From the NCBI GenBank assembly GCA_041659085.1, contig JBAZYZ010000014.1, forward strand, positions 836 through 15,416: a stretch of DNA of 14,581 bases, in the 5' to 3' direction. This stretch comes from Minisyncoccota bacterium (GTDB taxonomy: Bacteria > Patescibacteriota > Minisyncoccia > Phycocordibacterales > VMEP01). Under the pieces are notes generated by a model. That model had not been told where the DNA came from and did no database searches. It worked only from the letters and a program-made list of their open reading frames with translations. The translations under genes and the position numbers were made by a program. Positions within the stretch are counted from its first letter, which is position 1. Each line of letters opens with the position of its first letter. This document shows positions 2,737-14,581 of the stretch, in pieces.

Positions 2737-2809
2737 GGCGTAGTGGCCAAGTGGTAAGGCAAGGGACTGCAAATCCCTTATACGGCGGTTCGATTCCGCC
2801 CTACGCCTC
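2737..2809 (+). tRNA. tRNA-Cys (anticodon GCA)
   Basis: Acceptor stem GGCGTAG/CTACGCC is perfect. Anticodon stem AGGGA/TCCCT with loop CTGCAAA, T-arm GGCGG-TTCGATT-CCGCC, discriminator T. CCA is not fully encoded. Begins 5 nt after the rbfA stop. Confidence 0.85.
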
Positions 2810-2831
2810 AAGTGAATAAGTTTTCACTTTT

Positions 2832-2913
2832 GCCCGGGTGGCGGAACTGGTATACGCGCACGACTTAAAATCGTGTCTCGCAAGGGATGTGGGTTCGATT
2901 CCCACCCCGGGCA
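2832..2913 (+). tRNA. tRNA-Leu (anticodon TAA), long variable arm
   Basis: Acceptor GCCCGGG/CCCGGGC. Anticodon stem CACGA/TCGTG with loop CTTAAAA, long variable arm, T-arm GTGGG-TTCGATT-CCCAC, discriminator A. Confidence 0.85.
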
Positions 2914-2956
2914 CTAGTTTTGAGAATCGAATAAAGTTTGATAGATTTAGGAAGTT

Positions 2957-2994
2957 AAAAAATATCCGCCCATAGCTGTTTTGGTAGATATACA
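2957..2994 (+). pseudogene. degenerate partial copy of the tRNA-Lys 5' half (acceptor and D-arm only)
   Basis: AAAAAATATCCGCCCATAGCTGTTTTGGTAGATATACAG aligns at roughly 26/31 identity with AAAATAATATCCGCCCGTAGCTCAGTTGGTAGAGCAG of the intact tRNA-Lys 75 nt downstream, including the shared AT-rich leader. It has no anticodon arm, T-arm or 3' acceptor. Confidence 0.4.
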
Positions 2995-3040
2995 GTAAAG
3001 TAAATTTGAATAATAAAAAGGTAAAGTTTTAAAATAATAT

Positions 3041-3113
3041 CCGCCCGTAGCTCAGTTGGTAGAGCAGTTGCCTCTTAAGCAAATGGTCGTAGGTTCGATT
3101 CCTACCGGGCGGA
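3041..3113 (+). tRNA. tRNA-Lys (anticodon CTT)
   Basis: Acceptor CCGCCCG/CGGGCGG. D-arm GCTC-AGTTGGTA-GAGC. Anticodon loop CTCTTAA with one non-WC pair at 27-43. T-arm GTAGG-TTCGATT-CCTAC, discriminator A. Confidence 0.85.
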
Positions 3114-3124
3114 CAAGCGTTAAG

Positions 3125-3149
3125 AAAATTTCCCCTGCGGGAAATTTTT
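3125..3149 (+). terminator. intrinsic terminator-like hairpin plus T-run after tRNA-Lys
   Basis: Perfect 10-bp stem AAAATTTCCC/GGGAAATTTT with loop CTGC, followed by TTTTT. Confidence 0.45.
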
Positions 3150-3291
3150 AGCTTGTCCGAAGCGCAGCGATGTTTTTGTTTGAGCTTTGCTCAAGGCAAA
3201 AACCGCGAGCCGGGGTCGCGAAATTTTTCCGTCAGGAAAAATATTTGTGACGACAAGTGATACAATAATGCGTAGGGTGGTTTATTAATAC

Positions 3292-3373
3292 GGGCGAGTG
3301 GCGGAATTGGTATACGCGCGTGCCTTAGGAGCACGTTCCGAAAGGATTGGAGGTTCGAGTCCTCTCTCGCCCA
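3292..3373 (+). tRNA. tRNA-Leu (anticodon TAG), long variable arm
   Basis: Acceptor GGGCGAG/CTCGCCC. Anticodon stem CGTGC/GCACG with loop CTTAGGA, variable arm TTCCGAAAGGATT, T-arm GGAGG-TTCGAGT-CCTCT, discriminator A. The D region is nearly identical to the Leu-TAA gene. Confidence 0.85.
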
Positions 3374-3380
3374 CTATTAC

Positions 3381-3594: not shown

Positions 3595-4770
3595 ATGGAA
3601 GCAATCTGGGAAAACATGCAAAGTATTCTCACGGTAATCGGCTATATCATCGGAGGAATAGTCGTGATTGCATCAATCTCTTTTGTCATTTTCTTGGGCG
3701 TTAAGATGGCGCCCATTCTTATCGACAAAAACCTCAAGCTAAGCAGAGTAAGAACTCTGTTCATATCGGGACCAATATTAACTATCGCGGGTTGGCCGAT
3801 ATTCCTCGTATTGATTCAGGTTTTATTCTGGATGACAAACTGGATAATCGGCAACTCTTACCTTGAGCACAATACCGTGACAATCGTTGCGGGATTATTC
3901 CTAAGCATTGCTTATTTTTACATCGGCGGGCTCGCCAAGGTAAAGAAAGCCAGTGTTGGGATGCCGGAAATTTTCGGCGCGCGCAGGGTTGGTTTCGTTC
4001 TGCCGGAGGGGTACTGTCATATTCCCCCGCGGCCGTTCATGAGCTACACAGAAACGCCAATAGAACTCATCACCACAAAACTGAACGAACCTATGGAGGT
4101 ATTAGTCGGCAAACAAATCAGCGCGGACCCCAACCAACCCCAGGCGGGACAAGTAATTCCTGATAACAAGCTTGTCTCAGAAGTGAAAATGAAAGTTGAC
4201 GCTTCTATAGCATGGCAGGCGGACCCCTTAAACCTTCTTGGGTACACAAGCGTTCAAGACGGCGCAAAGGGTGTTGAAAAAGCTCTGGTTGACATAATGC
4301 GCCGGGTCATTCGTGAAAAAGCGCAAGGGATGTCTGACTCTGAATTCCTGAAGGGGCAAAAAGATCTTGAAGAAGCCCTCAAAGCGGCGCTCGAAGCTCC
4401 ACTTAACGCCGAAGAAGAAGCCAAGAAAGCATCCAACGGAGACTGGCACAATCTAATCAGGCGACTGGGAATAACGGTAATCAAGATTCAGGTAACAAAA
4501 ATCGTTCCCGCGTCAGAGGAGATGATTACCAGGCTTGAAAGGATTCGCGGGGAACAACTTGACCAGGAGGCGGAAAAGAACCAGGTGCGTCATCTTATCG
4601 ACAACCTGGCTGGTCCCCTGATAAAAGAGCTCAACGTAAGTCCCGAAGCAGGTCTCCGTGCCGCGCTTGCCACCACTAAAGACGCGACAATGATCATAGT
4701 CGATGGCGCGGCAGGCGACTTCACGAAAGGGCAAGCTCTCGCCGCAAACAGTGGAAACCAAAGGAGGTAA
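3595..4770 (+). CDS. membrane-anchored SPFH/band-7 (stomatin/prohibitin/flotillin-like) domain protein
   Basis: About four N-terminal TM helices, then PEIFGARRVGFVLPEGYCHIPPRPFMSYTETPIELITTKL...VKMKVDASIAWQADP...WHNLIRRLGITVIKIQVTKIVP, which fits the Band_7 core pattern (G.hf.iP.i..v..vdlr / v.vda.v.yrv.dp / GieV..v.I.di.pp). A coiled-coil-like Glu/Lys/Ala-rich segment lies between. Good SD. Confidence 0.6.
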   Translation: MEAIWENMQSILTVIGYIIGGIVVIASISFVIFLGVKMAPILIDKNLKLSRVRTLFISGPILTIAGWPIFLVLIQVLFWMTNWIIGNSYLEHNTVTIVAGLFLSIAYFYIGGLAKVKKASVGMPEIFGARRVGFVLPEGYCHIPPRPFMSYTETPIELITTKLNEPMEVLVGKQISADPNQPQAGQVIPDNKLVSEVKMKVDASIAWQADPLNLLGYTSVQDGAKGVEKALVDIMRRVIREKAQGMSDSEFLKGQKDLEEALKAALEAPLNAEEEAKKASNGDWHNLIRRLGITVIKIQVTKIVPASEEMITRLERIRGEQLDQEAEKNQVRHLIDNLAGPLIKELNVSPEAGLRAALATTKDATMIIVDGAAGDFTKGQALAANSGNQRR

Positions 4771-4775
4771 CAATC

Positions 4776-5240
4776 ATGCTCCATCCTAACGTTGACAAAG
4801 GCATTTCAGCAACCTTCAAGTGGCTGGGTGTTTCAGCTTTAATCATCCTGGTCATCGGCGTGGGCGTAAGCGTCTACAAAAAAGTCAAACAAGACGCGCC
4901 TCCGCCTCCGCCTCCCCCCTCAGCAAGCGCTCTCATGGCAAGAGGTGGCATAGGACCGGAAATTAGAATGGTCCTGGCGCCAAGGGATGATTGGTCGGAC
5001 GGAGTTGATGCGACCGACAAGTCAAACAATATGTACCCGATTGGCGGAGGATGCTACAGGGTAAAGGTCAATGGAAAAGTGGCCACAAACGGCGCCGGGA
5101 AAGAAGAAATTTGCAACGGCGACGATGTTGCGGGCGGACAAAATACCGCCACTCGCCTCATTTTGAGATTCCAGTCTGCCGAAAAAGACAGGGACCTCAC
5201 GATGAAGGTGACCATGCATCGGAAGCCTCCCCGTGTGTAA
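4776..5240 (+). CDS. small membrane protein: one TM helix, poly-Pro linker (PPPPPPP), Cys-containing beta-rich C-terminal domain; co-operonic partner of the SPFH gene
   Basis: ATG lies 5 nt after the SPFH stop with a GGAGG SD 9 nt upstream. 154 aa with no recognisable family. Its position is analogous to NfeD partners of SPFH proteins (inference only). Confidence 0.5.
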   Translation: MLHPNVDKGISATFKWLGVSALIILVIGVGVSVYKKVKQDAPPPPPPPSASALMARGGIGPEIRMVLAPRDDWSDGVDATDKSNNMYPIGGGCYRVKVNGKVATNGAGKEEICNGDDVAGGQNTATRLILRFQSAEKDRDLTMKVTMHRKPPRV

Positions 5241-5282: not shown

Positions 5283-5308
5283 AAGCCGCCCACAAGGCGG
5301 CTTTTTTC
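5283..5308. terminator. bidirectional intrinsic terminator between convergent genes
   Basis: Stem AAGCCGCC/GGCGGCTT with loop CACAA, followed by TTTTTT on the plus strand. The reverse complement also carries a downstream T-run. Confidence 0.6.
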
Positions 5309-5333: not shown

Positions 5334-5585
5334 CTACGGATGAGTTACTGACACCTGTAGAGTACTCGCCAATATCTGAATAATCCCCCAGAAGCCGGTC
5401 ATAATAACAAGACCGACAAGCCCCCAGATAATATGCTGTTTGCCTTTTTCTCTTTCAGCTTCGCTGTTTTGGTAAAGGAAATATTCAATAACCCCGAAAG
5501 CGAAGTACGCAAGAGCCAGAACAAACATGAACCCGATAATCGGATTGAGCACGTACTGGTTAATTTTTAAGAGTAAGGCGTCCAC
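5334..5585 (-). CDS. small two-helix membrane protein, paralog A of a TrbC/VirB2-pilin-like family; no signal peptide, GTG start
   Basis: 83 aa. FMFVLALAYFAFGV...EREKGKQHIIWGLVGLVIMTGFWGI shares the helix-FxG-charged loop-W-helix core with the four upstream genes. Confidence 0.45.
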   Translation of the reverse strand: MDALLLKINQYVLNPIIGFMFVLALAYFAFGVIEYFLYQNSEAEREKGKQHIIWGLVGLVIMTGFWGIIQILASTLQVSVTHP

Positions 5586-5610
5586 GGTTCAGTGTGCCGA
5601 TAATTCCTCG

Positions 5611-5982
5611 CTAGAAAGTGCCGCCGGTAACAACACCGCCGGTGCCGATCGTAGCGTTAACGCCAGGAATAGGAGGACTGCCTCCGGTTCCCACACCAAG
5701 AGTGGTGGCAATGACCTTTACCAAGCCCCATACCGCAACCATCACGAAAAGAGCTATAACACCCCAAACCATGAGTCTGCGTCCTTCATCCGCTTTCTCG
5801 CCCGGACCGTTGAAAAGGTACATTGCGAGTCCCCAAAGGAAGAAGAGCAAAGCCAAGGCTACCACGATGACTGTGGCTATATTTATAATGGTGCCGACTT
5901 TCTGCAAGATATTCACGGCGTCCTGGGCCAATGCAAGCATCGGTAGGCCAAACGCTGCTATAATTGCTGCTGCTTTTTTCAT
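5611..5982 (-). CDS. secreted two-helix membrane protein, TrbC/VirB2-pilin-like (paralog B), Gly-rich C-terminal tail
   Basis: Signal peptide MKKAAAIIAAFGLPMLALA|QD. Core ALALLFFLWGLAMYLFNGPGEKADEGRRLMVWGVIALFVMVAVWGL is near-identical in pattern to paralog C. Tail GVGTGGSPPIPGVNATIGTGGVVTGGTF. Confidence 0.6.
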   Translation of the reverse strand: MKKAAAIIAAFGLPMLALAQDAVNILQKVGTIINIATVIVVALALLFFLWGLAMYLFNGPGEKADEGRRLMVWGVIALFVMVAVWGLVKVIATTLGVGTGGSPPIPGVNATIGTGGVVTGGTF

Positions 5983-6122
5983 ATTTTTTATAACTTGTCC
6001 CGTAGTGAGCCCTGCCCTGCTACTGGGATTACTTACTAATAATTTACTTCTTATACTTACAATTGTACTATATTTTGCCCAATTTGCCTGTTGATAATTA
6101 AATCAACTAAAATGGCCTAAAA

Positions 6123-6572
6123 TTAATTAGTCGGATTAAATGAACCTGGTAAATTAACACCTCCTGTATTGTAGGTGCTTCCCCCACTAGAGTTAAGCTG
6201 CGGCTGTCCGGAACTAAACCCAAACGTCCTCGAAATCACCCCGGCGAGCTGCATGGCGGCAACCATGACAAACAAAGCAATAATGCCCCATATCATAAAC
6301 TGCCGACCCTCATCCCGAGCCTTTTGGTCATCGGCTTTATAAAGAAACTTCGCCACCCCCCATAAAAACAGTAGGAGTGCCAGAGCGATGAGAAGGATAC
6401 TGAGTGTTTGAATCAGGCCTGAAGCGCAGGCAAACAAACCTATCAATCCGCTACTGCTGACGCTTGTACAAGATGAAGACTGGGCTAGAGCCAAAAATGG
6501 AGTAAGAGCCGCAACCGCAACCCCCGCCCTGAGAACCGTTAAATAATTTTGTTTTATCATTACTTTATTCAT
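6123..6572 (-). CDS. secreted two-helix membrane protein, TrbC/VirB2-pilin-like (paralog C)
   Basis: Signal peptide ...ALTPFLALA|QSS, two Cys before helix 1. Core ALALLLFLWGVAKFLYKADDQKARDEGRQFMIWGIIALFVMVAAMQL. Gly/Ser/Asn-rich tail. Confidence 0.6.
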   Translation of the reverse strand: MNKVMIKQNYLTVLRAGVAVAALTPFLALAQSSSCTSVSSSGLIGLFACASGLIQTLSILLIALALLLFLWGVAKFLYKADDQKARDEGRQFMIWGIIALFVMVAAMQLAGVISRTFGFSSGQPQLNSSGGSTYNTGGVNLPGSFNPTN

Positions 6573-6625
6573 TACCTGTTAAAATGGCTGTTGTTTGTTT
6601 GTCCTCCGCGTTCCGATAGATTAAA

Positions 6626-7063
6626 TTATCCTATTATCTGCGCGACCGTCGTGGTCAAAACTTTTGCGAGCAAACTCGCGCCAAGCAGTATCGCGGTACC
6701 AATAATAGTATACCAAAAAATCTGCTTGGCATCCTTTATGGCTTTTTCATCCCCCGCAGCGGTTACAAATTTGAACCCGGCAAAGATTATGAAAATAGCG
6801 GCGATTGGCACCCCCACCTTGAGGACAGCGTCGGCAATCTTTCCCAAAAAAGCCGAGAGGCTTGTGGAACCTATGGGGTTACAAAGCTTGCCCGGCTCAC
6901 AGTTTCCACTGCTCTGGGACGGGTTACTGTCTATGTTGTATGTGCCCGGGAAATTATCCTGGGCAAAAGCAAAAAACGGAATACCGAGCAACATAGCGAA
7001 AACAAACCAAACGGAGATAATTGAAAATATTATTTTTGTAAAATCATTTATGTTGCTTTTCAT
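6626..7063 (-). CDS. secreted two-helix membrane protein, same family (paralog D)
   Basis: Signal peptide ...FFAFA|QDN. Cys pair (GNCEPGKLCNP). Core IAAIFIIFAGFKFVTAAGDEKAIKDAKQIFWYTIIGTAILLGA. ATG overlaps the stop of the upstream gene (ATGA). Confidence 0.55.
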   Translation of the reverse strand: MKSNINDFTKIIFSIISVWFVFAMLLGIPFFAFAQDNFPGTYNIDSNPSQSSGNCEPGKLCNPIGSTSLSAFLGKIADAVLKVGVPIAAIFIIFAGFKFVTAAGDEKAIKDAKQIFWYTIIGTAILLGASLLAKVLTTTVAQIIG

Positions 7064-7548
7064 TTCTTTAATTCTATCACGTTAAAGCTAAGCTTGCCTT
7101 GGTATAACTCCGTTTTGGCCTGAAACGCGAAAAGTATGAACTTTACTATCAATACGGCGGCCAAAGCCACAAGAAACCCGACCACCACGTTCCAAAGTAT
7201 GCTCTTGGCCTCGTCCAAACTGCCTGAACTTGCGGATTTGAACATCATAAGAAAACCCGCCCACATAAACAGAATCACGGCAAACGGCAGAGCTACGTCT
7301 TTAAGGAGAAAATTGACGATATTATTACCCAGCGTTACCAGATCATTGAATGTGCATTGCGCGCGCGGCGTGCCCGCATCAATGCTCCTGCCGCAAGGAA
7401 TGAGATTTATCGCCGCGCTGGCGGAAAACGGGACCACGATAACCAACAACAAATAACCGACAATAAGCAATCGAACGAAGTTAAATTTCTCTGAACTTTC
7501 AGACCTTTCTCTCGTAAAAAACCCGAACGTTGTTGCAATTTTTTTCAT
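7060..7548 (-). CDS. secreted two-helix membrane protein, same family (paralog E); start placed at the internal ATG (MKKIATT...)
   Basis: The longest ORF would start at 7638 but would overlap the SBP gene by 89 nt. The ATG at 7548 sits 1 nt after the SBP stop. Signal peptide ...PFSASA|AIN, Cys pair, core FAVILFMWAGFLMMFKSASSGSLDEAKSILWNVVVGFLVALAAV. Confidence 0.5.
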   Translation of the reverse strand: MKKIATTFGFFTRERSESSEKFNFVRLLIVGYLLLVIVVPFSASAAINLIPCGRSIDAGTPRAQCTFNDLVTLGNNIVNFLLKDVALPFAVILFMWAGFLMMFKSASSGSLDEAKSILWNVVVGFLVALAAVLIVKFILFAFQAKTELYQGKLSFNVIELKK

Positions 7549-7549
7549 A

Positions 7550-8851
7550 TTAATTTTTGTTAAGCAGTTTGGCGAGCTCACCGTCGGCATTTGTAACAGC
7601 GTCATTAATCCGCAAGCGTCCCGATACAACGTTTTCAATCAATTCTTTAAAGATGGCGGATGTCTCGACGGGCGACGGATCAATCCAGCCACGGCTCATA
7701 AGAGCCGATTCAAAAAACACATTCATATACGCGTCTCCCGGCTTGCTTCCCAGTATATCGCGTCTGGCCGGCGGCAGGAAAGTCTGTTTGGCGAGTTTGA
7801 GCGCGTATTCCTGGTCCGTCATCAAACTTTCCACCCGGAGCGCAGCGGACAAATTTTTGGACCCGCGGAGAGCCGCCAACCCCTCAATTTCACCAATAGT
7901 GATCTTGGCGGACGCGCCCTTAACCTGCGGAACCGCGGTTACGTCAAAATTAAGATGCGGATTACGCTCGCGGATGCCGAACAATTCGCTCGCATAACCG
8001 AAATAAAAAGCCAAGGTTCCGGAAAGAAAAGCGTCCCGCGAATTGGGTTGCGATTTGGACCATGAATATGAAGATGTTACGGGATTGGAAAAATTGGCAT
8101 AGTAACGCACAGCTTCGTCAGCCGGTCGCAGCGATTGGCTTGAGGTGTCCCCAAATACGGATTTTAGACCGCTGTCGGCGCGCTGAACAATTTTGTTGCC
8201 GGCCTGCAATGTAAGGAGCGAAATTATGTCTTTGGCGTAATTAACATTCACAAATTCGCCAAAAGAGACCGCGCTTTTAACAACGTTCCCGGAAGAATCC
8301 TTCTCCACGAGCTCCGGAGTCATGGCCAAAAGCTCTTCCCATGTTTTCGGCGGAAGAGATATGCCGGAATTTGTGAGGCTGTCGCGGTTGAAGTACATAA
8401 CCATCGGGTCAATACGGAGAGGAAGAGCCAAAATACCCTGCGCGGTTAAGAAAATCTCGCCTTCTTCCACAAAAGTGTCTTTGAAATCCCGTTCGGAAAG
8501 AGTCGAGTAGGCAATCGGATAAATTTTATCGGAGTGGCGGTATATAAGCCCGCGCGGAAGCATTATCAGGTCCGGACCTAGTCCGGAAGCAAGAGCTTCG
8601 GTAAGGTCGCGGTCAAAAACGCTCCGGTTTTTCTCAACATAAGTAACTGAAATAGGCTTATATTTGAGGTTAAAATCGTCGATAATAGGGGCAATAGAAG
8701 TGGCCGGCACTGTCCCCCATAAAACTACGGCGCCGGAAACGTCTGAATCGCCGCCCATTTTAAGACCCGGGACAAGCCCGGAAAAAATCAAAACTGCCAC
8801 AAATATAAAGAGACCAAATACGCTTATTACAATGATTTGAAAGTTAGACAT
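7550..8851 (-). CDS. extracellular solute-binding protein, family 1 (ABC-type sugar/oligosaccharide-binding fold), N-terminal membrane anchor; no permease or ATPase in the window
   Basis: 433 aa with N-terminal TM anchor (IIVISVFGLFIFVAVLIFSGLV). Two-lobe SBP_bac_1-like features (LWGTVP, WEEL, AFYFGYASE, C-terminal helical region). Confidence 0.65.
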   Translation of the reverse strand: MSNFQIIVISVFGLFIFVAVLIFSGLVPGLKMGGDSDVSGAVVLWGTVPATSIAPIIDDFNLKYKPISVTYVEKNRSVFDRDLTEALASGLGPDLIMLPRGLIYRHSDKIYPIAYSTLSERDFKDTFVEEGEIFLTAQGILALPLRIDPMVMYFNRDSLTNSGISLPPKTWEELLAMTPELVEKDSSGNVVKSAVSFGEFVNVNYAKDIISLLTLQAGNKIVQRADSGLKSVFGDTSSQSLRPADEAVRYYANFSNPVTSSYSWSKSQPNSRDAFLSGTLAFYFGYASELFGIRERNPHLNFDVTAVPQVKGASAKITIGEIEGLAALRGSKNLSAALRVESLMTDQEYALKLAKQTFLPPARRDILGSKPGDAYMNVFFESALMSRGWIDPSPVETSAIFKELIENVVSGRLRINDAVTNADGELAKLLNKN

Positions 8852-8892
8852 GACTGATTTTCAGAATGAATCGGGAATCACTTTTGTTCCGC

Positions 8893-9423
8893 TCAAAATT
8901 TCTGAAACAAAAGCGCGTAATGATATTCCCCAGCCTCAATTTCATTATACAAAGAAAAACCCGAATTAAGAAACAGTTTTCTGGCGTCTCCTTCGGAAAC
9001 TACGTCTCCCTGCTTCGGTCCGAGTCCTCCGAAAGATTCTTTCCAATCCAAAACAAGAGCGTATCCGCGCGTCTTCAAAATCCTGGTTACTTCTTTTAAA
9101 ACTCCTTCTTTGTTTTCCACCTGAAACAACACATTGGCTAAAATCACCAACCCGACAGAGGAATCGCTAAGCCTGGTTCCGTTCGGCGCCTCGATGTCGC
9201 CCCAAATAACCTCCACATTGGAAAGTTTCTCGCGTGAAGCCGCCGCCTTAACGGCCCCAACCAGCTCTTTGTTGATTTCAACGGCATAAACATGACCGGA
9301 CGCGCCGACTCTTTTTGCAACGGGAACAGTGAAAGACCCGACGCCAGAACCAAAATCCGCAACAATAAGCCCTTCCTCAAGCGGAAGTTTTTTTGCGATT
9401 TCTTCGGGTTTTAAAAAAGCCAT
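8893..9423 (-). CDS. class I SAM-dependent methyltransferase (small, 176 aa)
   Basis: Motif I VADFGSGVG, motif II-like acidic residue (YAVEIN), and a Rossmann-like alternation pattern. Confidence 0.7.
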   Translation of the reverse strand: MAFLKPEEIAKKLPLEEGLIVADFGSGVGSFTVPVAKRVGASGHVYAVEINKELVGAVKAAASREKLSNVEVIWGDIEAPNGTRLSDSSVGLVILANVLFQVENKEGVLKEVTRILKTRGYALVLDWKESFGGLGPKQGDVVSEGDARKLFLNSGFSLYNEIEAGEYHYALLFQKF

Positions 9424-9551
9424 GTGTTTTTTTGCGAAAAATAATTTTCAGTTTTCAAATCTCAATTTTCGGTAAATTTTCGAATGAATTCGTTTGAATC
9501 ATCGGCGCCTGAAAATTCATTATTAATTGTAAATTGTTTACTGAAAATTGG

Positions 9552-12014
9552 CTAGAGGCACGTAAGAGAAGCTATGCTGTCTCCCGCGCGGAGCTTCATG
9601 ATACGCACGCCCTGTGTCTGCCTGCCGAGCGACGGCACGGAACTCAAATCTACTCTGACTACCTGGCTCTTTTTGGACATAGCGATAATTTGCGACATAT
9701 CTTCGCTTACAACCTCTGCTGCCATCACATTCCCTGTCTTGGCGGTTACCTTGGCTGTCTTGATGCCGGACCCGCCGCGTTTTTGCACCTTGTATTCTTT
9801 TATTGCTGTTCTCTTACCGAAACCGTTTTCCATCATAACCAGAAACATCGGGCCCTTGGATTCCTTTTTAACGACATCGGCTCCAATGAGCACGTCTCCA
9901 CGACCGAGCTTCATCCCGCGCACACCGCCCGCGGCGCGACCCATTTCGCGGATATCGGATTCTTTAAATCTTATCGCTTGACCTTTCTTGGTCGCCAATA
10001 TTACTTCATCGCCCTTATCCGTAAATAGCGTAGACAAAAGCAGATCGCCTTCCGAAAGTTTTATGGCAATGATACCGTTCCTGCGCACATCCTTGAAACT
10101 CTCGGCGGAAACTTTTTTGGCGGTGCCTTCTTTGGTAACCATGAGTATTGAAAGAGTGGCATTCTTAACCGCTTTCGGCATCGCCAAAATGGATGTCACT
10201 TTCTCATCGCCCCCGAGCTGGAGGAAATTCATTATTGACTTGCCTTTGGTGGCGCGGCGTCCTTCCGGTATGTCATACATTTTTATCTGATACGCCTTGC
10301 CTTTGTCGGTAAAGAACAGGAGATCGCTGTGGGTATTTGCGGTAAGGAGGTGCGTCACAAAATCCTCCTCCTTGGTGTCCAAATCAACCACACCCACGCC
10401 GCCGCGCTTCTGAACGCGGTATTCCGCAGGGTCGGTGCGCTTCACGTAACCGCCGGCTGTATAGACCAGAACGGATTCTTTTTCCGGAATTAAATCTTCC
10501 TCGGATATAACTTTGACCCCGCCTTTTATGACTTTGGTTCGGCGTTCATCACCGTACTTTGCTTTCGCTTCAACAAGTTCGTCCTTTACCACTTTCAAAA
10601 TCTTTTTGGCACTGGACAAAAGTTCCTTAAGTTTGCTTATAAAATCCTGAACTTCACTGAGTTCTTCTTCTATTTTCTTTCTTTCAAGTCCGGCAAGTTT
10701 CTGCAATTTCATTTCCAAAATCGCGGTAGCCTGGATTGCCGAGAACTTAAATTCTTTCATCAAATTGGCGTGCGCAGTCGGAGTATCTTTGGAACTTTTT
10801 ATGGTCTTTATTATTTGGTCTATGTGGTCAAGCGCCTTTTTTAGCCCGAGTAAAATATGCTCGCGTTCCAGAGCTTTCTTCAAATCAAACTCTGTTCGGC
10901 GGCGGACAATAACCTCGCGGTGCGAGATAAACTCCTTAAGCATGGCCCTAAGCGACAGTGTCTGCGGCACACCATCCACCAATGCCAAGACGTTGAAGTG
11001 AAAAACGTTTTCAAGCTCCGAGTGCTTGTAGAGATAGTTCAGAACCTTTTGCGGATGAATACCCGTCTTCAAATCTATGACTATGCGGATATCTTTGGTT
11101 GATTCGTCGCGGATATCTTTTATGCCTTCCAGTTTTTTCTCGTGGACCAAGTCCGCAATGTGGACTATAAGATCAGCCTTGTTTACGCGGTACGGAATGG
11201 AACTGATTATTATCTGGAATTGCCCGCTCTTGGTCTCAATAATCTCAGCTTCGCCGCGGCAAACCACCCCGCCCCGACCGGAAGCGTAAGCATGATGAAC
11301 TTCTTTATCGGCAAAAATGATTCCGCCGGTCGGAAAATCCGGCCCTTTTACGTACGTAAGCAAGTCTTCATTGGTTGCTTCTTCGTCGTCTATAAGATGA
11401 ATGGTGGCGTCAACCACTTCATTTAAGTTATGCGGCGGGACGGAAGTTGCCATGCCGACGGCAATACCAAGCGTGCCATTCAAAAGAAGATTGGGCAACG
11501 AGGCAGGCAAAACGGCAGGTTCTTTTTTGGTGTTGTCATAGTTGGGCCGCCACTCAACAGTTTCCTTATCCAAATCGCGGAGCATTTCGCTTGAAATCTT
11601 GGACATCTTGGCTTCCGTATAACGCATAGCCGCGGCTGAATCGCCGTCTATTGAGCCGAAGTTACCCTGACCTACGATGAGAGGATAGCGCATGGAAAAA
11701 TCCTGAGTCATTTTAACCATGGAATCATATACCGCCACGTCTCCATGCGGATGATATTTACCAAGCACCTCTCCAACCACGTTTGAAGATTTGCGGGTCT
11801 TTGCGGAGGAAGTGAGTCCAATCTCGTTCATCGCGTAGAGGATGCGCCGATGCACAGGTTTCAACCCGTCACGGACGTCAGGGAGCGCGCGCGAAGTGAT
11901 AACTGACATGGCGTAGTCCAAGTACGAAGTTCGCATTTCATGCGAAATTCCAACGGACACAATACCGTCTTCCAAAGCTCTTTTTGGGGCTATGTCCTTA
12001 TCCTTAGAAGCCAT
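9552..12014 (-). CDS. gyrA: DNA gyrase subunit A
   Basis: 820 aa. N-terminal breakage-reunion domain with the active-site Tyr region ([11 protein letters not shown]), QRDR-like block ([13 protein letters not shown]), C-terminal beta-pinwheel repeats and a GyrA-box-like QKRGGVG. The GyrA box argues for gyrase rather than topoisomerase IV. Confidence 0.93.
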
Positions 12015-12408: not shown

Positions 12409-13038
12409 TTAGCCTTGCGGTTTTAATAGAACAATATCCCCTTCCTTCCCCTCAATATCTTTTCTCTTGACGGTATATTTATCCAATTCCTCCGCGTCTT
12501 CAGCGCTGCCTTCTTTCAGGAAAACCCTGAGAGCTGCCGCGTCATAATCCATAGGAATAATAACTTTCGGTCCGAATGACGAGGCAAGATTATAAGCATC
12601 GCGCGGGCCAAGTCCGGGGAGCCCCACCGGAACAAAAATAATATCCACACCGTCTATCGCTTCTTTTATTTCAGGTGACAAATCTTTTGCGGTAAGCGCG
12701 CCCAAAATACACATATTTATACCGTCCAGAGAAAGTGTATATATGGTATTTATAAATTTTTCACCTCCAACCTCCGCAACGCTTGGAAAGCCTTTTATAA
12801 AAATTCCCTTAACTTCATACTCGCCGGGGCCTGACAAAATAAGCGGTTTTTTCTCGCCGAAAGTTATTCCGTCCGCGCCGTTGTAATCGGGGTGATTAAT
12901 TGATATTAGCCCGACGTCGGCGCCAAAGCGTGAACCGCTCAGTTTTGAATCCTTGCCTATCGGATTAACGGCAATAACCGTATCCCCTAACTGCATCTTG
13001 AAGAATTGCTTGCCGAAGTAAGTTAAAATCATGACCAA
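12409..13038 (-). CDS. metallo-beta-lactamase-fold (COG2220-like) protein with a degenerate metal-binding motif
   Basis: ILTYFGKQ...VIAVNPIG...ADVGLISINHPDYNG follows the MBL-fold pattern (M.ITyLGhs....iliDP....aDvvliSH.H.DH), but H-x-H-x-D-H is replaced by INHPDYNG. Confidence 0.5.
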   Translation of the reverse strand: MVMILTYFGKQFFKMQLGDTVIAVNPIGKDSKLSGSRFGADVGLISINHPDYNGADGITFGEKKPLILSGPGEYEVKGIFIKGFPSVAEVGGEKFINTIYTLSLDGINMCILGALTAKDLSPEIKEAIDGVDIIFVPVGLPGLGPRDAYNLASSFGPKVIIPMDYDAAALRVFLKEGSAEDAEELDKYTVKRKDIEGKEGDIVLLKPQG

Positions 13039-13419
13039 AAGTATACCAAATTTATAGAAAAATATAAATCGCGCAGAAAATACGATTTTTTATCCCGCTT
13101 GGAAGCGACTCCCAAGAGACCGCCTTGTCTGTTTATCCCTTGCTGTTTTTAAATAAATAGGGTAGAAATCAAATAGGTGTATGCAAGGAACAACAGTGGC
13201 CAGGCACGGTGCCGAAACCAGCAAGTTGTTTTTTGCGGGAAGGAGGTGATCCAAAGCCCGACAGGCAATACTATAGGTCTACTTCATTCCGGCAGTACAA
13301 AAACAAGGAGGCTTCTATCGGGAACATAAACCACTAGAAATTCCACACCTCGGCCTTCAATGGCCAAAACCAAAGTGCGAGCCTTGGGGCCCGCACACCA
13401 GAACCACCAGTAATACTGG

Positions 13420-13450
13420 AACCCCGGCTTGCCCGGGGTTTCTTCATTTT
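13420..13450 (+). terminator. terminator-like hairpin plus T-rich tail
   Basis: Stem AACCCCGG/CCGGGGTT with loop CTTGC, followed by TCTTCATTTTT. No long ORF lies upstream on the plus strand. A 17-codon sORF (MAKTKVRALGPAHQNHQ) ends 8 nt before it. Confidence 0.4.
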
Positions 13451-13563
13451 TAAAATGGACTTGACAATAAATATATGTTGTGACAAGGTGGTAAGAAGTC
13501 AAAAGCTACGGGAAACCGACGGGCCAATGATGAGTTCAATTTCAACTTCAAAAGGAAACGACA

Positions 13564-13734
13564 ATGGCACCCGCACGCGCAGGCCCGGGGAACAATTCCC
13601 GGAGAGTAAATTCAAGGATTTCTTCGATCGCCACGATCGCTTTCGCCGGCGCCAATGGATCCGCCAACGCTGCGAACGACCAGGGCCTGGGCAACTTCAA
13701 CTGCAGCACCGGCGCCGGCGGCAACACGCCCTAG
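13564..13734 (+). CDS. candidate 56-aa secreted small protein (Sec-type signal peptide plus about 20-aa Gly-rich mature peptide)
   Basis: AAAGGAAA lies 7 nt upstream of the ATG. Product MAPARAGPGNNSRRVNSRISSIATIAFAGANGSANA|ANDQGLGNFNCSTGAGGNTP has a basic n-region, a 12-residue h-region and an AXA site. It lies in a GC-rich stretch where spurious ORFs are likely. Confidence 0.2.
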   Translation: MAPARAGPGNNSRRVNSRISSIATIAFAGANGSANAANDQGLGNFNCSTGAGGNTP

Positions 13735-14222
13735 CGCTACGGCTGGCCCGATTCGCTTTTAGCCACAACCTTATCGCGTGAAGCGATGAGTAGGCCAAGT
13801 AAATCGAGCGGCGTGTAGAAGTTCTCGGGAGCATTCGGCTGGATGTCTTCCGAGCGTAGGACCGGAGCAGTGGCGGCGATTATCGAGCGACGGGGACCTG
13901 AAATAATGTCCATCGCCCATTCGCCCACACGCGAGCTTCGGTAGAATGCCGGCATCGTTGAACGGAGCGCCCCTGGCCCATCAGCCAATAGCGCCGTTCG
14001 GGACAGCGATAGCCGACGCGCGACCGGCGGGGGCGGCGATGAAATGATACGCCCCCGCCGGAACGCGAATCCATTTTTTGTTTTCTTTTTGAGGGAGGAA
14101 ACGTTGTACCCGAGAGGTTAAAAAACCTACGGAATAACTTTGAAATTTTTTGAGGAAGGCCGCCATGAAACGCTTCTTTCCAACACCGCCCAGGCGACGC
14201 TCACCAGCGTAGCCGCGCGAAG

Positions 14223-14250
14223 AAGCCCCGCGATTGCGGGGCTTTAAACT
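14223..14250 (+). terminator. GC-rich 9-bp hairpin with a weak T-tail
   Basis: AAGCCCCGC-gatt-GCGGGGCTT followed by TAAACTTTG, 11 nt after the stop of a 15-codon sORF. Confidence 0.3.
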
Positions 14251-14279
14251 TTGTACTTGTCCGTTTACACAAATTCCCG

Positions 14280-14318
14280 CCACTTGGAGGTTGAGCCTCC
14301 AAGTGGCTTGTTTTTTTT
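14280..14318 (+). terminator. strong intrinsic terminator
   Basis: Perfect 11-bp stem CCACTTGGAGG/CCTCCAAGTGG, loop TTGAG, then CTTG plus eight T residues. Confidence 0.6.
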
Positions 14319-14416
14319 AGCCCATGATGTATAGTGTCTCCATTACCAGCGGCGCTCCCAAGGTAACCCCATCACTTTCCGGAAATACAGCCCGTGACGG
14401 AACCAGGGAAGCAGAT

Positions 14417-14441
14417 ACCGCATATGTGCGGTTTTTTATTT
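14417..14441 (+). terminator. terminator-like hairpin plus T-run
   Basis: ACCGCA-tatg-TGCGGT followed by TTTTTTATTTGTTT. Confidence 0.4.
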
Positions 14442-14481
14442 GTTTACTCACCACGAAACAAATAAAAAACGATTTAATAAT

Positions 14482-14581
14482 ATGAAAGATACTGACACAA
14501 TAGAGATACAAGATGTTGTCGCCCGCAACATGGATGAGGAGAAAACTCCGTCGGGAAAGATGCTCTTGGACAAGAGCGTCC
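14482..14581 (+). CDS. hypothetical protein, 5' end only; the ORF runs off the window
   Basis: ATG at 14482 and an open frame to the window edge (MKDTDTIEIQDVVARNMDEEKTPSGKMLLDKSV). AT-rich upstream region with no SD. Confidence 0.25.
   Translation, partial: MKDTDTIEIQDVVARNMDEEKTPSGKMLLDKSV

Follow-up and report, generated by a model that had tools for sequence, protein, structure and literature searches.

Why does a gene for a solute-binding protein (SBP) stand at the head of a row of small pilin-like genes, with no transporter genes at its side? The question is raised by a stretch of 14,581 nucleotides from a Minisyncoccota bacterium (contig JBAZYZ010000014.1, positions 836 to 15,416 of the forward strand), hereafter "the window", whose first letter is position 1 in all coordinates below unless another locus is named. 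Six co-directional open reading frames (ORFs) lie on its minus strand, and the ORF list and the sequence place them just where a first-pass annotation, made from the sequence alone, had put them. In the order of transcription, these are the SBP (433 residues, 7550-8851) and the pilin-like proteins E (162 residues, 7060-7548), D (145 residues, 6626-7063), C (149 residues, 6123-6572), B (123 residues, 5611-5982), and A (83 residues, GTG start, 5334-5585). A SAM-dependent methyltransferase (8893-9423, minus strand) precedes the SBP. Methyltransferase, SBP, and pilin-like genes form an operon that is conserved across the class Paceibacteria; this much is secure. Its products may build a heteromeric pilus or surface fibre that comes with a glycan receptor, a reading to which we give about an even chance of being right.

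Conservation of the operon

Relatives of the SBP are encoded by at least 566 species-representative genomes. ORFs were called in 80 species-level loci with flanks of ±8 kb, and were searched with a hidden Markov model (HMM) built from the five small proteins of the window. Three or more pilin genes directly follow the SBP gene, on the same strand, in 56 of the 58 loci that extend at least 3.5 kb downstream, and pilin matches elsewhere in the flanks are almost absent. Arrays most often count five pilin genes (28 loci), others having six (13 loci), four (7 loci), seven (6 loci), or eight (1 locus). Six annotated contigs with homologs 42-46% identical display the same succession of GyrA, methyltransferase, SBP, and then four to six T4SS_pilin genes, and syntenic loci are found in Taylor-, Nomura-, Yonath-, Zambryski-, and Wolfebacteria. 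On the upstream side, 56 of 59 loci carry GyrA and 43 of 52 a Lactamase_B_3 protein; the order downstream is looser, with RbfA in 17 of 35 loci. An operon joining an SBP to pilin genes had been called unusual when the window was first annotated. Within Paceibacteria, this arrangement is the rule.

In 71 of 76 related loci, the SBP is preceded on its own strand by the methyltransferase (class I, 176 residues; Methyltransf_31, 9.2e-17). From the stop codon of the latter to the SBP start, the median distance is 16.5 nt, with 47 of the 76 loci at 20 nt or less, and the two genes overlap in locus L057 (see below) and in a JGI contig. It is probably the first gene of the transcription unit. Compared with NCBIfam, the protein reaches the cut-off of no equivalog model.

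Interruptions of the junction between the SBP and the first pilin are few; one of them, in locus L035 (592-1195), consists of two small ORFs that resemble, by eye, a HicB/HicA toxin-antitoxin pair. The Paceibacteria-type gyrA-methyltransferase-SBP-pilin locus is also carried by many metagenome-assembled genomes (MAGs) titled "uncultured Candidatus Saccharibacteria bacterium" (loci L005-L007, L013, L014, L024, and others), a title that is probably generic and not indicative of the class.

Family and architecture of the small proteins

The five small proteins match the Pfam family PF18895 (T4SS_pilin, T4SS standing for type IV secretion system). Against a cut-off of 26.6 bits, D scores 39.1 bits (E-value 8.2e-10), B 30.4 bits (4.1e-7), A 27.5 bits (3.2e-6), and E 26.8 bits (5.6e-6), and C falls just short with 24.3 bits (3.3e-5). 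E also exceeds the threshold of PF04956 (TrbC/VirB2), with 30.1 bits for a cut-off of 27.9 (5.8e-7). The TrbC/VirB2-pilin-like call made at first sight is thus borne out by HMM searches, for PF18895 in all five proteins (C below threshold) and for PF04956 in E. Among 140 array members from 28 species, PF18895 matches 135 (E-value <= 1e-3) and PF04956 matches 32, and relatives carry the name "pilin" at NCBI. A single-sequence search with E yields seven homologs, and a profile search is needed for more. A further relation concerns the NCBIfam model NF045849, the Mbov_0395 family of pilin-like conjugal transfer proteins: A scores 36.3 bits (3.4e-9) with 70 of 80 profile positions covered, D 24.4 bits, and B 20.3 bits, all below the curated membership cut-off of 40 bits.

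Hydropathy analysis shows that B, C, D, and E start with a hydrophobic leader, closed by an AxA site, and continue with two hydrophobic helices, and the leader Pro and AxA positions are kept in homologs. Leaders are predicted to end after ASA and before A in E, after AFA and before Q in D, and after ALA and before Q in both C and B, in agreement with the earlier remark that three mature N-termini start with Gln. A Sec signal peptide had been ascribed to all five proteins; this stands for B, C, D, and E and fails for A, which has no leader. Because a TGA codon lies two codons upstream of its GTG start, A is a leaderless two-helix protein of at most 83 residues. A pair of Cys residues is found ahead of the helical hairpin in E (C52 and C65), D, and C. 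The Gly-rich tails reported for B and C are present, that of C being rich in Gly, Ser, and Asn. The AlphaFold2 model of E (predicted local distance difference test, pLDDT, 73) displays a leader helix (residues 21-47) and a long hairpin formed by helices 67-105 and 111-149. The comparison with VirB2/TraA folds suggested at first does not discriminate; the fold search showed no similarity to solved pilins.

The initial description of five tandem paralogs applies within the A/B/C group and within the D/E group and does not extend between them, where pairwise similarity is at the level of noise. B and C are close paralogs as claimed, 45% identical over 75 residues, with a composition-adjusted E-value of 7.7e-19 and a raw score of 85.9 bits against a maximum of 22.7 among 300 shuffles. 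Composition-adjusted E-values are 4e-12 for A and B, 2e-8 for A and C, and 1.2e-7 for D and E (32% over 60 residues), and the raw scores of all four pairs lie above every one of 300 residue shuffles. As judged from their sequences, the two groups are linked only by their shared Pfam family.

Small size and a two-helix membrane topology are also features of holins and of Sec-dependent bacteriocin or immunity peptides, which the first-pass annotation had offered as alternatives. Nothing else speaks in their favour: the Pfam families are those of pilins, no lysin, bacteriocin-processing, or phage gene occurs in the window or in related loci, and the genes occupy a fixed core-genome site beside gyrA in hundreds of species. 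Family assignment and gene context led us to reject this reading, and the chance that it is right is close to nil.

Larger proteins are also recognised by the pilin profile. Its best matches (P0128-P0214) are 190-360 residues long and apparently contain two or three tandem PF18895 hairpins, and a 268-residue protein of locus L044 (10147-10950) has two matched stretches. All of these look like pilin-pilin fusions.

Subunit types in a fixed order

Positional orthology was assessed by recording, for each pilin of the 28 five-gene arrays, the position of its best match in other species. The resulting matrix is nearly diagonal, with 720 of 745 best matches at position 1, 753 of 756 at position 2, 625 of 756 at position 4, and 725 of 756 at position 5; position 3 mixes with position 4. 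Likewise, E of the window points to the first gene in 50 of 51 loci, D to the second in 51 of 55, B to the penultimate in 37 of 55, and A to the last in 45 of 55. According to these comparisons, the small proteins are at least four anciently diverged subunit types, kept in the order E, D, C/B, B, A, in which C holds the variable middle position and is related to B. The divergence is ancient, and each type has been retained, since positions 1, 2, 4, and 5 are orthologous across species. Within a type, orthologs share 32-40% identity, a level similar to that of the SBP, and are not hypervariable. Extra copies stem from duplications of the C/B type, the most expanded one (118 of 299 array members).

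Each type bears its own marks. All 51 E-types possess at least two Cys before the hairpin, with the consensus LvPC…C.f..L, and D-types share an IYSGFLFV…AK motif. C, B, and A have in common the motif F.WGV…G[RK]..M.WG..G.F.M.SVWG. A-types are short (median 99 residues) and either leaderless or equipped with a mini-leader ending in IAHA or IAYA. Some arrays are reduced, E alone remaining with the SBP in locus L054, and E and D in locus L078.

These results bear on the possibility that the copies are interchangeable variants of a major pilin, serving antigenic or host-range variation as proposed for such arrays (PMC12102498), in the manner of the VirB2 paralogs of Bartonella and Anaplasma. The low identity among copies and a copy number of 3 to 8, mostly through C/B-type duplications, agree with it. 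Against this stand the orthology of positions 1, 2, 4, and 5 across species, the conservation of each type at the level of the SBP, and the differing architectures of the members, E with its Cys pair and, in some species, ectodomains (see below), and A without a leader. Positional orthology led us to reject antigenic variation, and interchangeable variants of any kind seem very unlikely.

Junctions and probable transcription units

The 1-nt spacing noted between SBP and E is correct (TAA at 7552-7550, ATG of E at 7548), as is the ATGA overlap of E and D. In the 28 five-gene arrays, the median spacing is 4 nt between the SBP and gene 1, 6.5 nt between genes 1 and 2, 11 nt between genes 2 and 3, and 14.5 nt between genes 4 and 5, and it reaches 122.5 nt, with a minimum of 70, between genes 3 and 4. 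SBP, E, D, and C are thus spaced by -4 to ~15 nt, and the B-A pair follows after a conserved gap of ~120 nt. In 55 of 66 loci, no gap is larger than the one preceding the penultimate gene. Such gaps have a GC content of 29%, and TAnAAT is present in 52 of 62, as compared to 26 in shuffles. In the window, the gap before B (5983-6122, minus strand) is 140 nt long and AT-rich (GC 0.32), as first described, and harbors a promoter-like site, TCAACA-16-TATAGT, at 6094-6067; it is probably an internal promoter and leader for B-A. This layout fits two units, with coupled synthesis of SBP, E, D, and C at a low level, and a separate, probably stronger synthesis of B and A.

Other elements of the gaps are less clear-cut. 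A GGTCG motif, often followed by ATTATTA(G), is observed in 25 of 62 gaps against 2.7 in shuffled ones (for instance in loci L022, L045, L059, L060, and L079), at 20-70 nt ahead of the start codon, and may be a leader element or an operator. It is absent from the gap 5983-6122 of the window, where ATTATTAG is present. A hairpin in the putative B leader RNA (~5999-6045) is weak and not significant (z -1.85).

At the other end of the array, the bidirectional terminator initially proposed at 5283-5308 has the expected form: an 11-bp stem with a 3-nt loop, both in the minimum free energy and in the centroid structure, flanked by an A-tract and a U-tract. It is located between convergent genes and is terminator-like in both directions. 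A consensus scan did not list it, and a 66-nt piece containing it gives a z-score of just -1.53.

A strong synthesis of B and A would agree with expression data from cultured Paceibacteria (PMC10936435), in which PF18895 proteins, of this operon or of others, count among the top five secreted-protein genes. Among the supplementary table rows covered, none is an SBP_bac_1 or SBP_bac_8 entry.

The solute-binding protein

The annotation of the first gene as an SBP is upheld by its Pfam matches and by a MalE-type fold, of the type II periplasmic-binding-protein class. The protein matches SBP_bac_8 (3.9e-17, 63.4 bits for a cut-off of 27) and SBP_bac_1 (8.4e-15, 56 bits for a cut-off of 26). It is composed of an N-terminal transmembrane (TM) helix (residues ~3-23), a poorly conserved linker, and a bilobed SBP domain. 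Its AlphaFold2 model (pLDDT 89, predicted TM-score 0.84) was submitted to Foldseek, and the best matches were sugar- and oligosaccharide-binding SBPs, with E-values of ~1e-21 and TM-scores up to 0.75/0.82. Among solved structures, the closest are the sucrose-binding Atu4361, a cyclic maltosyl-maltose binder, sophoro-oligosaccharide binders, and MalE, to which identity is 15-19%; MalE within the MalFGK2 complex (3puy) is among the best matches. Many invariant aromatic and charged residues (W45, Y71, D94, Y153, W171, Y262, W264, Y283, E289, R364, and W389) would suit the predicted binding of sugars.

The N-terminus, MSNFQIIVISVF, is a TM helix without a lipobox. Read from the sequence, it also lacks the basic residue and Gly/Ala cleavage site of a class III (prepilin-type) signal. 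Across 71 orthologs, the conservation score of this anchor (0.53) is close to that of the globular domain (0.56) and far from that of the linker (0.24), with F4 kept in 96%, Q5 in 85%, F12 in 85%, and F23 in 99%. Such conservation appears unusual for a passive anchor.

The SBP family is large and uniform in length. A word-indexed search returned 848 matches, and 1,111 clusters at 50% identity were obtained at an E-value of 1e-30 or lower. The NCBI entry identical to the SBP of the window is assigned to Candidatus Paceibacterota.

A natural SBP-pilin fusion and decorated first pilins

In locus L057 (JBPOID010000005.1, Ca. Tayloriibacteriota MAG_71; 7992-9674), the SBP and the first pilin form a single ORF of 560 residues, with SBP_bac_8 at residues 63-368 and T4SS_pilin at residues 481-539. 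The pilin part keeps its Cys pair and its hairpin and has lost its own leader, from which it follows that the SBP domain, the Cys loop, and the C-terminus would all stay outside. Every one of its 40 best matches is a pilin of position 1, and D, C, B, and A types follow in the array.

In five other loci, position-1 pilins of 377-617 residues carry an N-terminal ectodomain before the PF18895 hairpin. The ectodomain is a subtilase (Peptidase_S8) in L016 (4722-6344), a CHB_HEX_C_1/Fn3_assoc module in L068 (9291-10877), and a fn3-like module (fn3/Pur_ac_phosph_N) in L027 (9327-10457), L004 (11312-12469), and L085 (7280-9130). The E-type pilin domain seems to serve as an anchor for display, and E would be an adaptor or display type of subunit. 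The first-pass annotation suggested a surface structure linked to adhesion or to the capture of a ligand, an idea that gains support from the natural SBP-pilin fusion; the function of this structure we still infer.

Transport as an alternative

The observation that no permease or ATPase accompanies the SBP has been extended: there is none in the window, and none in the operon of ~80 loci. The 1.04 Mb of flanks of these loci contain one Walker-A/LSGGQ ATPase-like ORF and one BPD_transp_1 ORF, both in L057 (14722-16162), on the opposite strand and 7.4 kb away. An ordinary ABC-transporter locus was rejected, as the operon has neither permease nor ATPase in the ~80 loci.

The SBP might nevertheless be the ordinary receptor of an ABC importer whose permease and ATPase are encoded elsewhere, its place beside the pilins reflecting only the frozen gene order of these streamlined genomes and the co-transcription of envelope genes; SBP and pilins would then be linked neither physically nor functionally. 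Orphan SBPs with distant permease and ATPase genes occur in Gram-positive bacteria. In favour of this view are the canonical MalE-type fold of the protein, the transporter SBPs (that of 3puy among them) that are its best structural matches, and the gene order between Lactamase_B_3 and the array, which most loci share, as counted above. This view does not account well for the junction with E, whose spacing of 1-9 nt or overlap persists at 40-45% SBP identity, for the retention of E beside the SBP when the rest of the array is lost, or for the in-frame fusion in which the leader of E is precisely deleted. The near-invariant residues of the TM anchor and the operon without permease or ATPase in ~80 loci also argue against it, as does the "dearth of transporters" reported for Parcubacteria (PMC4508563). 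We consider an importer receptor unlikely.

Proposed assembly into a surface structure

Under the favoured reading, a heteromeric pilus or surface fibre, the pilin-like proteins would be exported by Sec and their leaders cleaved, leaving hairpins embedded in the membrane with both termini outside. A chromosomal monoderm-type T4SS (VirB4/VirB6), encoded elsewhere, would then extract the hairpins and build a heteromeric pilus or short fibre. B, with A, would make up the bulk of the fibre, and E, D, and C would be low-copy adaptor or initiation subunits. E would present an exposed module, which in most species would be the separate SBP, held via its conserved TM helix or via its ectodomain, and in one species is fused. 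The SBP would serve as a glycan receptor for attachment to host surfaces or for capture of oligosaccharides, and not as the receptor of a local ABC importer.

A stronger form of this proposal, a "T4SS-pilin bindosome", would make the SBP an integral, stoichiometric part of a VirB2-type pilus, docked on E and fused to it in one lineage. We put it forward tentatively and regard it as rather doubtful.

Several points weigh against the pilus or fibre with its receptor. No filament has been seen for these proteins, whose presumed polymerisation has indirect support in the high expression of PF18895 proteins by cultured Paceibacteria (PMC10936435). The profile of 140 array members retrieved no pilin from the PDB, the best match being PsaF with an E-value of 0.15, so that no solved pilin is matched by sequence. 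Members of the VirB4, VirB6, and VirD4 families are absent from the window and from six annotated ±10 kb neighbourhoods, and no T4SS ATPase or channel was found among the large or multi-TM ORFs of ~80 loci, in the 25 of 36 Pfam families listed. Assembly by a T4SS is thus an assumption, as no T4SS gene lies within ±8-10 kb at any locus examined. The absence of a MalFGK-type permease is known for the surveyed loci alone. The fusion was seen once and so rests on a single MAG: the best 150 of 2,999 SBP family representatives (all 394-460 residues) include no second one, and no relative turned up when metagenomes were scanned with the L057 junction. The linkage itself may partly be inherited gene order, since Lactamase_B_3-GyrA-methyltransferase and, in about half of the loci, RbfA/IF-2 are also collinear. 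Finally, this reading does not account for a cytoplasmic methyltransferase within the operon of a surface structure.

Another possibility is a membrane hetero-oligomer of two-helix proteins that forms no filament and works with the SBP, either as a bindosome-like platform or as a new ATPase-independent uptake channel that the SBP would feed. The subunit set is fixed, stoichiometric-looking, and translationally coupled to the SBP, whose TM helix is conserved; the T4SS is not adjacent; PF18895 also occurs as the C-terminal membrane part of large exoproteins; and Sulfolobus offers a precedent of SBPs in a pilin-dependent surface assembly (PMC4371748). On the other hand, the small proteins are homologous to VirB2/TrbC pilins and to the pilin-like family of integrative and conjugative elements (ICEs), and their relatives adjoin virB4 in more than 1,000 Patescibacteria assemblies and are essential in the T4SS cluster of Ca. 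Southlakia epibionticum (PMC12102498, PMC10633639). The separate, strong-looking promoter of B-A is as expected for a bulk structural subunit, and transport via VirB2-like hairpins is without precedent. A complex of this kind appears improbable.

Relation to known systems

The literature already contains VirB2-like pilin arrays from Patescibacteria, and the kind of array is therefore known (PMC10633639, PMC12102498). A search of 3,035 Patescibacteria genomes with PF04956 and PF18895 retrieved 441 arrays of 2-11 VirB2-like genes, belonging to a monoderm-type T4SS, and copy variation was suggested to aid host range (Quinonero-Coronel et al. 2025, PMC12102498). In the same work, a pilin lies near virB4 (±20 genes) in 1,135 of 1,948 assemblies, so pilins away from virB4 are not new. 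In Ca. Southlakia epibionticum, the sole system tested for epibiotic growth, the pilin series of the T4SS cluster is essential (Wang et al. 2023, PMC10633639), a finding repeated in a 2025 review (PMC12857230). "Solute-binding" and "substrate-binding" are absent from PMC12102498, "substrate-binding" is absent from PMC10633639, and PMC12857230 makes no mention of an SBP. The conserved SBP-pilin module, with its fixed order, its two units, and its fusion, appears undescribed, no earlier report having been found.

The present array consists of five tandem PF04956/PF18895 genes, a Patescibacteria array being defined by two or more of them, adjacent or with a single non-pilin gene in between. It resembles those described (PMC10633639, PMC12102498) in its families, its tandem divergent copies with Sec leaders, its location on a Patescibacteria chromosome, and the absence of a nearby relaxase. 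Unlike them, it is not beside virB4, a MalE-type SBP and a methyltransferase stand at its head, and its members, far from being free variants, are orthologous types with fixed positions. With the Gram-negative TrbC/VirB2/TraA pilins, it shares the PF04956 match of E above threshold, a leader followed by two long helices with a short charged loop, and predicted termini outside; it differs by its monoderm host, by five types instead of one major pilin, and by the absence here of a detected VirB5-type tip protein and of adjacent T4SS genes. A, small (~80 residues), leaderless, and two-helical in a monoderm, is akin to the Mbov_0395 family of Mycoplasma ICEs, although it stays below the cut-off of 40 bits and has no ICE context.

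The SBP, for its part, has the Pfam families and bilobed fold of MalE-type receptors of ABC importers (TM-score 0.7-0.8), and departs from them in being held on a conserved TM helix rather than being lipid-anchored or free in the periplasm, in the lack of permease and ATPase genes in its operon, and in always being followed by pilin genes. Other SBP-fold sensors or receptors are tied to conjugation or type IV secretion with no local transporter. PrgZ of pCF10 is an OppA-type peptide binder feeding a chromosomal permease, and ChvE of Agrobacterium signals via the VirA kinase. Neither is known to share an operon with pilin genes or to be fused to a pilin.

The closest concept is the Sulfolobus bindosome, in which sugar-binding proteins are assembled by the Bas system, which resembles a type IV pilus (PMC4371748). 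Sugar-binding SBPs and small pilin-like proteins, thought to form a surface assembly, are common to both, and the likeness is one of concept only. The pilins are VirB2-like here and type IV there, the present SBP has no class III signal, PilB/PilC-like genes are lacking, and the organisms belong to different domains of life.

Neighbouring genes of the window

Upstream of the SBP, on the same strand, the methyltransferase is preceded by GyrA (9552-12014), a small ORF, and the Lactamase_B_3 protein. In syntenic loci, a gene for an S1-domain protein lies beyond Lactamase_B_3, of which tblastn finds no trace in the window. The plus strand of the window encodes DUF4446, IF-2, and RbfA proteins, four tRNAs, an SPFH protein, and a 154-residue protein. 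The tRNAs are clustered at 2737-3374 (Cys-GCA, Leu-TAA, Lys-CTT, and Leu-TAG). The two convergent neighbours of the array (3595-5240) are the SPFH/Band_7 protein, with an N-terminal multi-TM region, and the 154-residue TM protein, with a PPPPPPPP stretch; a Band_7 protein and a 162-residue protein occupy the same place in loci L085 and L086. The end of the window (13039-14581, ~1.5 kb) has no ORF longer than 147 residues and a GC content of up to 0.59 (13501-14000). An Rfam search of the ORF-free region 13000-14581 gave nothing above threshold, the best match being RsmY (14222-14343) with 26.9 bits for 57 required.

Significance

Much of bacterial diversity belongs to the Patescibacteria. In Paceibacteria, their pilin set is a fixed five-part kit and not a variable array, hard-wired to a predicted sugar-binding receptor, and its first subunit seems to be a general display platform for protease, fn3, or carbohydrate-binding-type modules, or for the SBP. 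The idea of pili for attachment thereby becomes testable, through the contact between SBP and E, the glycan specificity of the soluble, easily expressed SBP ectodomain, the contribution of B and A to the bulk of the fibre, and the dependence on VirB4. For annotators, this family of "ABC transporter substrate-binding proteins" (>1,100 clusters) is probably not a marker of sugar import in metabolic reconstructions. Should the SBP prove to be an integral part of the pilus, it would be the first one known to be built into a conjugative-type pilus. The conjugation-derived pilus of these ultra-small bacteria would then be a sugar-recognising organelle for host finding or nutrient scavenging, and would offer a concrete molecular approach to host recognition in this class, of which hardly any member has been cultured.

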